Shown: positions 1,469-24,383, numbered from the stretch's first letter. The stretch is DNA of 64,000 nt from Marinicella sp. (GCA_965230295.1 OZ246001.1:2176001-2240000), one strand, 5' to 3'. A program made the numbers and translations. The notes: a model not told the origin generated them from the sequence alone.

Positions 1469-1838
1469 ATGAATGTCGCTTGCCTTCTTTTTCGCAAAGC
1501 GAAAAAACCGGCTGCGCTCCATGGCTTTTATGAGTCTTGCTCTGTATTGCTGGCGCAATCCAACCGCCATCCATTGGATGAATGTTGCTTGCCTTCTTTC
1601 TGTATCGCAAAAAACCGGCTGCGCTCCATGGCTTTTATGAGTCTTGCTCTGTATTGCTGGCGCAATCCAACCGCCATCCATTGGATGAATGTTGCTTGCC
1701 TTCTTTCTGTATCGCAAAAAACCGGCTGCGTTTCATGGCTTTTATGAGTCTGGCTCGCCTAGAGGGATGTAGGTGTGCCGCGTTAGCAGGATGCGGAAGC
1801 GGCCTGACTTGCTGGCGCAATCCAACCGCCATCCATTG
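1469..1838. repeat. Three tandem ~107-109-bp structured repeat units; the third carries a 48-nt insertion
   Basis: Units start with ATGAATGT at 1469, 1578 and 1685 and end CGCAATCCAACCGCCATCCATTG. They are near-identical. Unit 3 has an extra 1756-1803. Confidence 0.95.
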
Positions 1839-1855
1839 CTCTCTGATACCAGTGG

Positions 1856-2311
1856 TTAACTGGTTATTGAAGCAACGAAAATTTCAGCTACCGCTTCAAA
1901 AAAATCTTTTTCAGCAGCTCCAAAGCGTTTTTTGATCGGGCTGTCGACATCCAGGACGCCATTGATTTGATCGGTGTAAAAAGGCACAACGATTTCTGAT
2001 TCAGAGGCGGCATCGCAGGCCACATGACCAGCAAAGGCGTGTACATCTGCCACCACTTCGGTGGCTTTTTGGGCAAAAGCTGTGCCACAAACCCCTTCGC
2101 CGATGGTCAAGCGGGTGCAGGCAGGTTGGCCATGAAAGGGGCCCAGCACCAATTCATCACCCTGTTGGTAATAAAAACCCAACCAGTTGACTCGTTCCAG
2201 GTTGTGGTACAGAAATGAACTGAGGTTGGCCGCATTGGCCTGTAGGTCATTTTCTGCTGATAACAGCGCCTCTAGTTGTTTGAGTAGCAGTGGGTAATTG
2301 TTTTCGCTCAT
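1856..2311 (-). CDS. msrC: GAF-domain free methionine-R-sulfoxide reductase
   Basis: NWLGFY...LVLGPFHGQPACTRL..GEGVCGTA...HVACDAASESEIVVP...GVLDVDS signature of fRMsr/YebR. Confidence 0.88.
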   Translation of the reverse strand: MSENNYPLLLKQLEALLSAENDLQANAANLSSFLYHNLERVNWLGFYYQQGDELVLGPFHGQPACTRLTIGEGVCGTAFAQKATEVVADVHAFAGHVACDAASESEIVVPFYTDQINGVLDVDSPIKKRFGAAEKDFFEAVAEIFVASITS

Positions 2312-2344
2312 GCCAATCTGTGGTGGTTAAAACGAGTAGGTGGG

Positions 2345-2379
2345 GCTGGTCTGAATGAATTAAAGCCATTCAGACCAGC
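2345..2379. terminator. Hairpin downstream of mscL, possible terminator or processing site
   Basis: GCTGGTCTGAATG-N9-CATTCAGACCAGC, a 13-bp perfect stem, without a clear U tract on the minus strand. Confidence 0.5.
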
Positions 2380-2393
2380 TATTTTTGTTTGAG

Positions 2394-2795
2394 TTATTTG
2401 TTTTTTAACAGGTCTCTGATTTCTGTCAACAAAACTTCTTCATTGGAAGGCTTGGGTGGCTCTGCCGGCGCTTCCTCTTCTTTTTTCTGCAGGTTGTTCA
2501 TGAATTTAACCATCATGAATACAGCAAACGCGATGATGATAAAGTCAATGGCGGTTTGCACAAAGGCCCCCCATTGCAGCACCACGGCTTCTGTTGTTTC
2601 TGTGGCCGCTTTTAATTCATAAGCCAAATCGGAAAAATCAACACCACCGATCAACAGTCCCAAAGGCGGCATCATCACACCATTAACAAAGGCCGAAACG
2701 ATTTTGCCAAAAGCAGCACCAATGATGATACCCACTGCCATGTCCATCACATTGCCTTTGACTGCAAACTTCTTAAATTCTGCCATCATGCCCAT
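2394..2795 (-). CDS. mscL: Large-conductance mechanosensitive channel
   Basis: [28 protein letters not shown]...[20 protein letters not shown] upstream. Confidence 0.97.
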
Positions 2796-2883
2796 AAATT
2801 TCTCCTCTTAAGTAGTAAAGTCCAATTATTGTATACAGAAACCTGGATCAATGTGCATGAAAACATTGTTAATAAACGCAAAA

Positions 2884-3151
2884 AGGAATGTTCTTGGGTC
2901 TCTATTCACTTTTGTTCCAAACAAAAGTGAAAACGACCACGGCGAACATGATTTGCTACCTCGCGCTCTTCGCCTCTGATTGGCCTACACGGATGTAGGT
3001 CTGCCGCGATAGCTAGGAGCGATAGCGGCCGCTATAACAAAAGCTCACGGCTAATCAATCATTACATCAGGGCTTCTTTGCTTTGCAAAATCGCCAAGAT
3101 TGCATGATTTGCCTAACCGGCTCGGCGGGTCAAGCTGCTCAGCAGCTTTTC
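2884..3151. repeat. Dispersed structured intergenic element, copy A (with two internal cassettes)
   Basis: Shares blocks AGGAATGTTCTTGGG..ATTCACTTTTGTTCCA.ACAAAAGTGAAAACGACCACGG, CGAACATGA.TTGCTACCTCGCGCTCTTCGCCTCTGATT and AACCGGCTCGGCGGGTCAAGCTGCTCAGCAGCTTT with 24170-24383. Confidence 0.93.
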
Positions 3152-3198
3152 AAGGCCCATCACATGGACAGGCCTTAGGGTTTACTGAAGCAGTTGTA

Positions 3199-22557: not shown

Positions 22558-22560
22558 GAT

Positions 22561-22992
22561 TTATTCCTCCTGGTTGAATTGGGTGGTGATGTGTTGTAGA
22601 AAACGAGACACGGTTTCAAGTTCGTCCTCGGAAAACCCTTGGTTGATGGAAGTGTTGACTGTTTTGAGTAAACCAAGACCTTGAAACAGTTTGGACCTGC
22701 CGAGCTCTGTAGAGAAAATGAGGTTGGAACGGGAGTCCGCTGCATTGGTTTTTTTAATGATGAGGTCATTGGCCAGCATCCTCTTGGTCAAGCCGGTAAC
22801 GGCAGATTTGTCAATCATCAATGCATGGGCCAATTGTTTCATTGGGCAACCATTGTTTTCATTCAAAACCATCAAGGCCGTCAGTTGTACCACTGAAATT
22901 CCGAGCTGTTCCTGACAGCCGGCTTCTAAAAACTTCATCATGGTGTGTCTGGCTGCATTGATTTGGTAGATCAAACGTCTTTTTTGTTTCAT
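22561..22992 (-). CDS. MarR family transcriptional regulator
   Basis: wHTH LAHALMIDKSAVTGLTKRM...DSRSNLIFST.LG. Start re-assigned to ATG 22992. Confidence 0.9.
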   Translation of the reverse strand: MKQKRRLIYQINAARHTMMKFLEAGCQEQLGISVVQLTALMVLNENNGCPMKQLAHALMIDKSAVTGLTKRMLANDLIIKKTNAADSRSNLIFSTELGRSKLFQGLGLLKTVNTSINQGFSEDELETVSRFLQHITTQFNQEE

Positions 22993-22998
22993 ATGGGA

Positions 22999-23038
22999 AT
23001 GATAAAAATATATAGTTGACATGTCAACCATATATTTT
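22999..23038 (-). promoter_or_regulatory. Sigma70 promoter (TTGACA-17-TATCAT) overlapped by a 34-bp palindromic operator
   Basis: -35 at 23027-23022, -10 at 23004-22999. Palindrome AAAATATATAGTTGACATGTCAACCATATATTTT (23005-23038) has one mismatch. Confidence 0.8.
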
Positions 23039-23178
23039 GAATGAATGAGATCGATGGCTTTCCGATCTATAAATTGGTTTTTTCTTGATATTAAACATCA
23101 GATCAATAAAATTCGAATGATTGAAACAATAATCATTCTTTGTAAGCAAACAAACAAAAGACGCATATGGAAAAAAGC

Positions 23179-23613
23179 ATGAAAATTAAAGTGATGGTGG
23201 CTTTGCTGATTTTTTTGACTGTAGAAGTCAACGGCAAGATGTATAAGTGGGTTGATGAAAATGGCGTCACTCGTTATTCTCAAACTAAACCGGAAGGGAT
23301 TGAAACTTCAGAAATCAAAGTCAAAGGAATGCCTGATAAAAGTGATCAAACACAATCGGCAAGCAGTGGCAGTTCTTCAGTGCTCAATTGTCAGCAAGTG
23401 GTGAAACATGGGATCAGTTTGATGAAAAAGAAATATGTTCAACAATCAGGTGGACAGACCAGTTCGGTGCTGGCTTTTCTGGATGATCCGGGTTTTGTTG
23501 CTGATGGTGTCAAAGAGTGTAACAAAGACAAAAAAGACCCGGTAAAAGCTGCCCAATGGTTGTGTCAACAAAATGCCAAAACTTTTGACGAGGTAGAGGC
23601 TTGTGAAAAGTAA
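23179..23613 (+). CDS. DUF4124 domain-containing secreted protein
   Basis: Signal peptide then MYKWVDENGVTRYSQTKP; four Cys in the C-terminal part. Confidence 0.82.
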   Translation: MKIKVMVALLIFLTVEVNGKMYKWVDENGVTRYSQTKPEGIETSEIKVKGMPDKSDQTQSASSGSSSVLNCQQVVKHGISLMKKKYVQQSGGQTSSVLAFLDDPGFVADGVKECNKDKKDPVKAAQWLCQQNAKTFDEVEACEK

Positions 23614-23626
23614 ATATTGAGTCTCG

Positions 23627-24118
23627 TCAGTATTCTGTTTTATCGGTTTTGGCTGCCCAGGCTTGAAACACCTCTAAGGCATCGGCTTGTGCCACTTGTT
23701 CAAAAGGTATTTGCCGGTGTTCAATGTGGGCATCAATTTCATCATAAATGAACTGGTCATCAAAAGCGATGTCAGCCGCATCATGCCGGTCACAACCATA
23801 ATACACCTTTTTGGGTCTGGCCCAATAAATGGCACCCAGGCACATGGGACAGGGTTCACAAGAGGTGTAAATCACACAATCGTCTAATTGGAAAGTTCCC
23901 AATTTTTCACAGGCGAGTCGGATGGCTGTGACTTCAGCATGTGCAGTGGGGTCATTGGTTGAAGTGACTCTGTTCCAGCCTTCGGCAATGATCTCATTGT
24001 CTTTGACTACCAAAGCACCAAAAGGCCCCCCGGCGCCACTGTCCATGCCAGTTCGAGCCAATTCAATGGCTCGCTGCATAAAAACTTGGTGTTGATCTTT
24101 TTTAATCTTTACATTCAT
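23627..24118 (-). CDS. Guanine/nucleoside deaminase (cytidine deaminase-like family)
   Basis: GGPFGA, NDPTAHAEV, SCEPCPMCLGAIYWAR, FDDQFIY as in B. subtilis-type GuaD. Confidence 0.9.
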   Translation of the reverse strand: MNVKIKKDQHQVFMQRAIELARTGMDSGAGGPFGALVVKDNEIIAEGWNRVTSTNDPTAHAEVTAIRLACEKLGTFQLDDCVIYTSCEPCPMCLGAIYWARPKKVYYGCDRHDAADIAFDDQFIYDEIDAHIEHRQIPFEQVAQADALEVFQAWAAKTDKTEY

Positions 24119-24169
24119 ACCGCTATCATAAATTGAAGCGGCATGAATTCAAGTCTTTATTCTTAACTA

Positions 24170-24383
24170 AGGAATGTTCTTGGGGCTTCATTCACTTTTG
24201 TTCCAGACAAAAGTGAAAACGACCACGGTTTACGGCATTCACCCGTTACTTCTTTGCCATTGGCAAAACCGTAACGAATTCATTGCCTAACCTGCGAACA
24301 TGACTTGCTACCTCGCGCTCTTCGCCTCTGATTCGCTATGCTCACCAACCGGCTCGGCGGGTCAAGCTGCTCAGCAGCTTTCC
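24170..24383. repeat. Dispersed structured intergenic element, copy B (with a different internal cassette)
   Basis: Same scaffold blocks as 2884-3151. Carries an extra 66 nt at ~24229-24294 and lacks both cassettes of copy A. Confidence 0.93.

Follow-up and report, generated by a model that had tools for sequence, protein, structure and literature searches.

ERIC/IRU elements of enterobacteria are imperfect, structured repeats of about 127 nt that also exist as larger variants with insertions at fixed internal sites, and the SDR repeats of Nostoc, reportedly described by Elhai et al. in 2008, are said to measure 21 to 27 nt and to lie nested within further repeats, with no duplication of the target. 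BOX elements of Streptococcus (boxA-boxB(n)-boxC, with S. suis variants carrying boxD, boxE, and boxF) are modular intergenic composites with conserved ends and independently folding variable cargo; the excerpted text of PMC3049150 presents them as highly base-paired, enriched between convergent genes, located on the leading strand in about 61% of copies, and inserted into one another and into other repeats, with no evidence in that excerpt of flanking target duplication. The same excerpt mentions effects of ERIC on transcripts, and excerpts of PMC3116915 and PMC3733652 describe REP, REPIN, and RAYT together with the GTAG and CGTC classes. Here, we report a family of intergenic repeats in a Marinicella sp. 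(GCA_965230295.1), followed up from three loci in a 64,000-nt stretch, hereafter the window (OZ246001.1:2176001-2240000, or G000:C1:2176001-2240000 in our numbering; positions are window coordinates unless G000:C1 is stated): two scaffold copies, A (2883-3151) and B (24169-24383), and a tandem array (1469-1838), all on the plus strand. Nothing relevant on genomic repeats of Marinicella was among the matches listed in a literature search. By analogy, the family is best classed with modular repeats of the BOX/BIME/ERIC kind, BOX being the closest. With a probability of roughly one half, we read it as a family of non-autonomous, structure-dependent, intergenic mosaic repeats, and the hierarchy of structure-defined, non-autonomous modules put forward in an initial annotation of the window finds support here.

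Copies A and B have one scaffold in common and differ in what it carries, as had been proposed. Three blocks align between them at 93% (60 nt; 2883-2942 with 24169-24228), 95% (43 nt; 2942-2984 with 24294-24336), and 100% identity (35 nt; 3115-3149 with 24347-24381). Only B has 66 nt directly after GACCACGG (24229-24294), and only A has 48 nt (2982-3029) and 65 nt (3049-3113), separated by a 19-nt linker (3030-3048) that equals the loop of B plus about 7 nt. The 48-nt insert is an H-type cassette, situated in the loop of helix P3 and made of two hairpins, CCTACA-CGGA-TGTAGG and CCGCGATAGC...GCGATAGCGG; in H-type cassettes GTAGG is followed after 4 nt by a hairpin, a tag that the scaffold lacks, and a related motif, GTAGGTCTGCCGCGATAGC, has 56 genome matches at no more than 3 mismatches. 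The other two inserts are internal-loop-hairpin (ILH) cassettes, with cores GGC-TTCTT-TGCTTTGCA-AAATC-GCC in A (3071-3095) and GTTAC-TTCTT-TGCCATTGGCA-AAACC-GTAAC in B (24245-24275), the latter placed by its predicted fold at a bulge of the 3' strand of helix P1. Downstream of its cassettes, copy A continues with the 3' strand of P3, the terminal hairpin P4 (3132-3148), and the tail (3115-3151), a part with 66 genomic matches, mostly at 100%. The covariance model of the scaffold, R1, scored 94.5 bits (2883-3002) and 28.4 bits (3036-3151) on A and 112.8 bits on B (E = 1.8e-31, model positions 1-149). Each architecture, 268 nt in A and 214 nt in B, has a second genomic copy, at 95% and 96% identity, respectively.

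The scaffold blocks and cassettes recur across the genome far more often than chance would allow. A blastn-short search (E<1e-3) of the whole genome, which is a single contig of 4,008,074 bp (44% G+C, 97.9% complete), found 57, 67, and 66 matches of the three scaffold blocks and 34, 22, and 4 matches of the 48-, 65-, and 66-nt cassettes. The 24-nt scaffold head, AGGAATGTTCTTGGGGCTTCATTC, is present in 115 copies (no more than 4 mismatches), and 63 heads are paired with a standard tail no more than 800 nt away, forming complete copies of 148 nt (14 copies) up to 632 nt (seven copies); of the remaining 52, some are solitary and the others are members of tandem arrays or of subfamilies whose tails differ. 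The basic unit is about 149 nt, from AAGGAATG through GCAGCTTTCC. Copies are intergenic, and spacer DNA repeated at a depth of at least 3 amounts to 49,747 bases in 310 regions, the longest no more than 656 nt.

The seven 632-nt composites, each at its own locus, end as the 148-nt basic copies do and carry their cassettes at fixed scaffold sites. I1 (94 nt, with a nested 54-nt ILH piece) takes the place of the 5' arm of the P2 hairpin; the bulge of P1 accepts I2 (101 nt) or the 66-nt ILH cassette; the 5' strand of P3 accepts I3, a pair of ILH cassettes; and the loop of P3 accepts I4, the 48-nt H-type cassette, and the 65-nt ILH cassette. Nested cassettes are all oriented like their host scaffold. 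Filled and empty versions coexist, as had been noted from the window: a matrix of 10 cassettes across 63 copies held 25 patterns of presence and absence with the same ends throughout, and several cassette pairs showed all four combinations. I1 is 98.8% identical across 41 copies, and the heads that precede it, of at least four subtypes, are 92.8% identical; a cassette this uniform behind divergent heads indicates that I1 spread among scaffolds that had already diverged. That the elements target one another, as suggested earlier, is one reading among others: gene conversion between scaffold copies accounts equally well for the patterns of presence and absence. Near G000:C1:3334785, outside the window, a 27-nt piece of I1 (TCTTCATTCTGGTTCATGGTCTGACAGG) is repeated three or more times in tandem. 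Single parts also occur alone: solitary heads of about 29 nt at G000:C1:918537 and 205251, outside the window, fold as a small hairpin (AAGGAATG...CATTCCTT) and could be remnants, footprints, or minimal units, and a lone P4 hairpin (CAAGCTGCTCAGCAGCTTT) without surrounding scaffold lies on the plus strand at 45878-45897 (blastn, 100%; genome 2221878-2221897). A coding reading was considered, the basic unit being stop-free in one frame and a composite having a 106-codon stop-free stretch on the bottom strand, and was rejected: the cassettes have lengths that 3 does not divide, sequence differences among copies alter residues, and frames cross cassette boundaries.

The scaffold has a conserved fold. 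Alignment A3, which combines 12 basic elements of this genome with 23 from relatives (35 in all), gave an RNAalifold consensus of four helices: P1, a long-range helix in which the head ATGTTCTTGGG pairs with CC.ACGG.CGAACAT; P2, a hairpin; P3, in two parts; and P4, the terminal hairpin. Placed on copy A by the consensus and the pair counts, domain 1 spans 2888-2949 on the plus strand, where P1 (2888-2898 with 2937-2949) encloses the P2 hairpin (2905-2931) and a conserved internal loop, CTTCATT/AAAACG. Standard pairs filled 97.2% of cells compared with 90.5 +/- 0.4% after shuffling, and changes on both sides were found at 16 of 33 pairs, compared with 5.6 +/- 1.5 in shuffled alignments and 3 to 6 with partners slid. 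None of 500 shuffles reached either value, and the covariation check suggested in the initial annotation is thereby significant. Compensatory changes occur at five of the seven P4 pairs. Pairing in P1 is maintained as TTC:GAA, TCC:GGA, CTC:GAG, TCT:AGA, CTG:CAG, and CTT:AAG, as CCGTTC:GAACGG in a genome of another family, and through more compensatory variants in G032 and G027. Two P1 U.G pairs are nearly invariant (34/35 and 30/35 sequences), which weakly favors the top strand, since they would be A.C mismatches on the other. Guide-like pairing between the 5' and 3' ends, hinted at by the comparison of this genome with its relatives, received no support from the tails of subfamily 2 and was rejected.

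Domain 1 of the scaffold, which runs stem, loop CTTCATT, hairpin, loop AAAGCG, stem, is itself an ILH and is built like the ILH cassettes, in which a stem with C as its last base is followed by TTCTT or TTCAT, then by a variable hairpin, then by AAACC or AAATC, and lastly by a stem whose first base is G. Under a definition requiring 4 bp in the outer stem and no fewer than 3 bp in the inner one, the ILH pattern occurred 78 times over the two strands of the genome, compared with a single occurrence when one strand of a shuffled genome was scanned. Six outer stems and six inner hairpins appear in the strict-pattern list, or about seven and eight when cassettes read by eye are added. Private substitutions among the 14 basic copies fell on paired positions in 8 of 924 site-copies and on unpaired positions in 30 of 1162 (odds ratio 0.33, p=0.004).

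The tandem array consists of three units of about 107 nt, starting at 1469, 1578, and 1685 (TRF: period 107, 2.7 copies, 94% matches). Each unit has one ILH (about 1481-1513, 1591-1620, and 1698-1727), and a whole-genome blastn search placed the unit in G000 at its own locus only. Unit 3 is split by a 47-nt H-type cassette (1757-1803, plus strand; eight genomic matches at 88 to 92%), first taken for the same 48-nt cassette as in copy A; it is instead a diverged variant, identical to 2982-3029 in 40 of 51 aligned columns. The unit had also been called otherwise unrelated to the scaffold. Model R1 indeed gives no match to the array, though its units have a motif order in common with the array-type scaffolds of the sister-genus genome G044: GAATG, then TTGCC-TTCTTT-hairpin-AAAAAACC-GGC, then a CTCTG...CCAACC-like segment. 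H-type cassettes within arrays are also present in G015 and G018. Judged by motif order, the tandem array looks like a distant array-type relative of the scaffold. Another array outside the window, at G000:C1:1313159-1313525, holds four scaffold units of about 122 nt truncated past CCAACC.

The family extends beyond the species. BLAST detected parts of the element in 14 of 18 same-genus genomes, and of 121 genomes sampled across the order, 13 had an R1 match to the scaffold, namely G000, all nine sampled same-genus genomes, G044 with its tandem arrays of scaffolds, G027 from another family (at least 16 matches), and G025 with one weak match; the other 108 sampled genomes had no R1 match, and R1 counts per genome are lower bounds, at most 25 candidates having been scored in each. 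In G032, with at least 25 copies, the median identity among its own copies was 76.6%. Alignment with L001 and L002 showed an empty glnA-mscL spacer in two relatives. In G014 (L156, regions 8200-8900 and 9525-10709), about 1.3 kb downstream of a classical RAYT, a scaffold element at 10148-10296 separates an open reading frame (ORF) of 114 aa from one of 202 aa that has a nucleotidyltransferase-like motif, GSDIDLMV; the two ORFs may be a split toxin-antitoxin-like pair.

The ends of the element form no terminal inverted repeat (TIR): AAGGAATG... and ...CTTTCC share just GGA/TCC and degenerate W positions. Identical 3-nt flanks occurred in 4 of 63 copies compared with 2.2 +/- 1.3 in permutations, and no consistent duplication of 2 to 5 nt appeared at any offset, the rows with z>2.5 resting on one or two of the 63 copies; the absence of a target-site duplication (TSD) reported from the window holds genome-wide. 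The 5' flank reads A-W-W-A (A at -1 in 98/115 copies, W at -2 and -3, A at -4 in 76/115) and the 3' flank W-W-W-G (W at +1 to +3, G at +4 in 50/65), and no fixed 4- to 5-nt target was found in the flanks, the 5' side offering just A-W-W-A. P2 begins 23 nt in from the 5' end, and 3 nt separate the end of P4 from the TCC tail; these subterminal hairpins are unlike each other. Insertion into hairpins was rejected, the joined flanks folding worse than controls (mean -8.4 vs -10.8 kcal/mol), and a comparison by eye with integron attC and IHF sites gave no consistent match.

With no TIR, no TSD, and no parent insertion sequence (IS) with matching ends, the family falls outside the miniature inverted-repeat transposable elements; its conserved ends, variable internal modules, intergenic position, and many dispersed copies agree with the descriptive BOX/BIME-like class. 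ERIC is one long imperfect palindrome, whereas the scaffold folds asymmetrically into two domains and includes a long-range helix. The SDR repeats of Nostoc are reportedly 21 to 27 nt, and the cassettes here measure 45 to 100 nt and contain a conserved ILH. The resemblance to BOX is one of architecture, with no sequence relation: BOX repeats one module in a tandem run, whereas here several cassette types occupy at least five fixed sites and the ILH serves as both scaffold part and cassette, and BOX has TIRs that are said to resemble ISSpn2, whereas no TIR and no resident multi-copy IS were found here. Hairpins at gene 3' ends, mosaic higher-order arrangements, and tandem arrays recall REP, BIME, and REPIN as outlined in excerpts of PMC3116915 and PMC3733652, as do the RAYT-like Y1 genes of the genus and, possibly, GTAG next to a hairpin in H-type cassettes; the 149-nt multi-helix fold, however, is neither a 20- to 40-nt palindrome nor an inverted REP doublet. 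No Rfam family accounts for the loci: there was no match to them at gathering score and none overlapping the array or copy A at E<=10 (1400-3250).

As first observed, the three window loci are each positioned 3' of a minus-strand gene, and they are antisense to their neighbors. The array is 3' of a GAF-domain gene (1856-2311; Pfam GAF_2 and GAF) initially called msrC; copy A is 3' of glnA (3199-4602; Pfam Gln-synt_C and Gln-synt_N), with mscL (2394-2795; Pfam MscL, 161 bits) as its downstream neighbor; and copy B is 3' of an ORF of 233 aa (24383-25084). By GlnA, the nearest named relatives of the genome are Marinicella, at 95% to an uncultured Marinicella metagenome-assembled genome and 85% to M. 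pacifica. A tRNA gene at 35885-35958 (RF00005, 65.7 bits) is the sole gathering-score Rfam match in the window. Across the genome, 64 S3-anchored copies were distributed over convergent (19), divergent (11), and tandem (34) spacers, compared with 10.8, 16.0, and 37.3 expected by spacer length, an enrichment in convergent spacers (p=0.017), and in co-directional spacers orientation relative to the flanking genes showed no preference (17 vs 17). GC skew places the origin near 1,719,422 and the terminus at about 3,857,365. Relative to these points, the top strand coincides with leading-strand sequence for 48/64 S3-anchored copies (p=8e-5), for 79/115 heads (p=7.5e-5), and for all 14 basic copies, compared with 61% of genes; 12 of 17 copies still keep this strand rule where both neighboring genes oppose the element. 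In relatives the leading strand was judged from the sign of GC skew over 20 kb, which was correct in 194 of 200 G000 windows. Six relatives gave 10 of 21 copies by pattern, or 18 of 30 with the orientation of nine further copies read by eye, G031 gave 14 of 24, and the pooled relatives 32 of 54. The strand bias is real in G000 and not general to the family.

We scrutinized the genome for enzymes that might act on these repeats. Its one Y1_Tnp gene (G000:C1:1669261-1669821; L093:1300-1863) encodes 187 aa with HVH and Y motifs, and its best NCBIfam match is the REP-associated tyrosine transposase at 67 bits, under the cut-off of 80. This gene and a single-copy rve gene were the sole Y1 and rve matches and both lie outside the window, in agreement with the initial report of no transposase nearby, for the families searched. 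No IS110, TnpB, or DDE_Tnp_1 match was found in G000, nor an RVT_1 match in a search that matched three control genomes; Y2/IS91 gave no match in G000, and the controls were silent likewise. No head leads into a long repeated region. Long genome-wide repeats found by megablast are two-copy or tandem, and the two examined are ordinary genes, a secreted-protein paralogue and EF-Tu, a 6.1-kb two-copy repeat being left out. A run of tandem repeats of about 7 kb outside the window (G000:C1:2691506-2698548; period about 785 nt, 92 to 97% identity) probably encodes a large repetitive protein. The Y1 gene is flanked on both sides by different, unrelated GACTTCAGTC-type hairpins, and its orthologue (50 to 61% identity) was found in 3 of the 23 other same-genus genomes searched, G031, G003, and, in part, G012; other Y1 types occur in 16 of the 23. 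The inverted hairpins beside it are of types GTTGACTTCAGTCAAC and CGGTGACTTCAG..GTCACCG; with 18 plus-strand occurrences of the 10-mer GACTTCAGTC in the genome and 23 of GACTGAAGTC, they may form a small separate REP/TIR family. In G014, the classical RAYT (178 aa) lies between its own inverted GTAGGATGGGCTCCGCCCATC REPs (GTAGGATGGGC, GTAG type), not scaffold elements, and G000 has one GTAG REP of this type. PF01797 (Y1_Tnp) had no match at E<=0.01 in five of five element-bearing genomes tested (G032, G015, and G044, at least 99% complete; G016 and G027, 89% complete), and G007 has a Y1 gene and no BLAST match to the element. CGTC repeats, too, are reported without a dedicated transposase in the excerpted REP literature (PMC3116915 and PMC3733652).

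These searches bear on how the family might move. The notion that an HUH Y1 transposase, IS200/IS605-like or RAYT, moves scaffolds or cassettes as single-stranded DNA, through their subterminal hairpins and into the lagging-strand template, is quite unlikely, even though IS200/IS605-derived palindrome elements likewise have asymmetric ends, a subterminal hairpin near each end, and neither TIR nor TSD, and the REP-associated match of the one Y1 gene is in its favor. The strand bias of G000 would make the top strand the lagging-strand template beyond what gene orientation gives, and GTAG precedes a hairpin in H-type cassettes, GTAG being a REP tag in the excerpt of PMC3733652. Yet the bias was not repeated in the relatives, the two end hairpins are dissimilar, no conserved target tetranucleotide or pentanucleotide is present, the Y1/RAYT genes of G000 and G014 are flanked by other repeats, the G000 orthologue is confined to three relatives, five element-bearing genomes have no Y1_Tnp, and several host genomes lack TnpA or TnpB; the HUH/RAYT mechanism raised in the initial annotation is disfavored by these observations. 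The RNA-templated route raised beside it, by transcription, copying back into DNA, and insertion, is very improbable: nested cassettes that share the orientation of their host and an RNA-like fold would suit it, whereas a 97.9%-complete genome without RVT_1, in a search that succeeded on controls, and copies without poly-A or any other retro-insertion signature do not. Assembly artefact is hardly credible as an origin of the loci. Short-read contigs of run X1, viewed over 1-20000, do end inside the repeats, at 1531, 1701, 2933, and 3120, and those of X1-X3 break in repeats, joints from 2981 to 3115 representing other family copies and no empty allele; the family is nevertheless found in 13 of 121 genomes of the order, with diverged copies that carry compensatory changes, and contigs from other runs hold basic-type family junctions.

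Function at the RNA level is another alternative, which we consider somewhat unlikely: each copy would function as a structured RNA or would act in cis on its transcript (as a 3'-UTR stabilizer, a processing site, or a protein-binding RNA, for instance), with the ILH binding protein and dispersal being secondary. Covariation reaching across genera, unpaired junction motifs that are kept (CTTCATTCA, GAAAGCG, CTCTGATTCGC, and CCAACC), ILH stems that vary around fixed TTCTT and AAACC loops, private substitutions that avoid stems, and P1 U.G pairs that would be mismatched on the other strand are all consistent with it, as is the position of copies at gene 3' ends. Such a role is harder to reconcile with random orientation relative to flanking genes, antisense placement of all three window loci, a top strand without a promoter-like site, no Rfam match even at E<=10, and copy positions that differ between species. 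The loops of H-type hairpins carry GGA, and these hairpins presumably resemble the consensus selected in vitro (SELEX) for CsrA/RsmA; GGA is not enriched, however (201 GGA vs 180 TCC over 21.6 kb of elements), which makes a CsrA sponge unlikely, and that candidate was rejected. BOX repeats are reported to be transcribed in the excerpt of PMC3049150. Distinctly improbable is a further possibility, in which the scaffold is a mobile element without its own transposase, its conserved multi-helix fold, organized around the ILH, either read by a host or unrecognised enzyme or itself taking part in strand-transfer chemistry, and the cassettes are parasites of that parasite, homing into scaffold loops; if true, structure-specific insertion of DNA or RNA would have a new recognition module in the ILH.

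We favor the reading as non-autonomous, structure-dependent mosaic repeats. The dispersing unit would be the entire scaffold, bounded by AAGGAATG and by the terminal hairpin with TCC, irrespective of cargo, as the shared ends of basic copies and of the seven composites at different loci suggest, and selection would maintain the four-helix fold and the conserved unpaired motifs. Together, fold and motifs may be what a trans-acting factor recognizes, a factor outside the Y1, IS110, TnpB, DDE_Tnp_1, and reverse transcriptase families. Extra ILH and H-type cassettes would sit in tolerant loops and bulges and may pass between copies by gene conversion of homologous scaffolds or by site-specific insertion, either of which would produce combinatorial architectures; surviving copies would be those that do little harm, mostly at gene 3' ends. 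Mobility itself we infer from the number of copies, the differing positions of copies in different species, and the occurrence of near-identical composites at several loci. Several points weigh against this reading. It leaves the strand bias of heads and basic copies unexplained, and the roughly threefold deficit of private substitutions at paired sites suggests selection on each copy, and function at each locus over pure selfishness. No mobilizing enzyme was found among the families searched, nor was any insertion or excision captured at the level of single nucleotides. The spacer gene calls are crude and ORF-based, and the origin and terminus were placed from GC skew only.

The machinery that mobilizes most small structured repeats (BOX, ERIC, and CGTC-type REPs) is obscure, and the Marinicella family is an unusually clean case in which to study it, having a single-contig genome in which no multi-copy IS was found, about 115 copies, and abundant covariation. 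The 632-nt composites and the near-uniform I1 point to recent bursts, and the short, recurrent ILH could act as bait for a binding factor. In practical terms, these repeats break short-read assemblies of these marine bacteria and create spurious ORFs.

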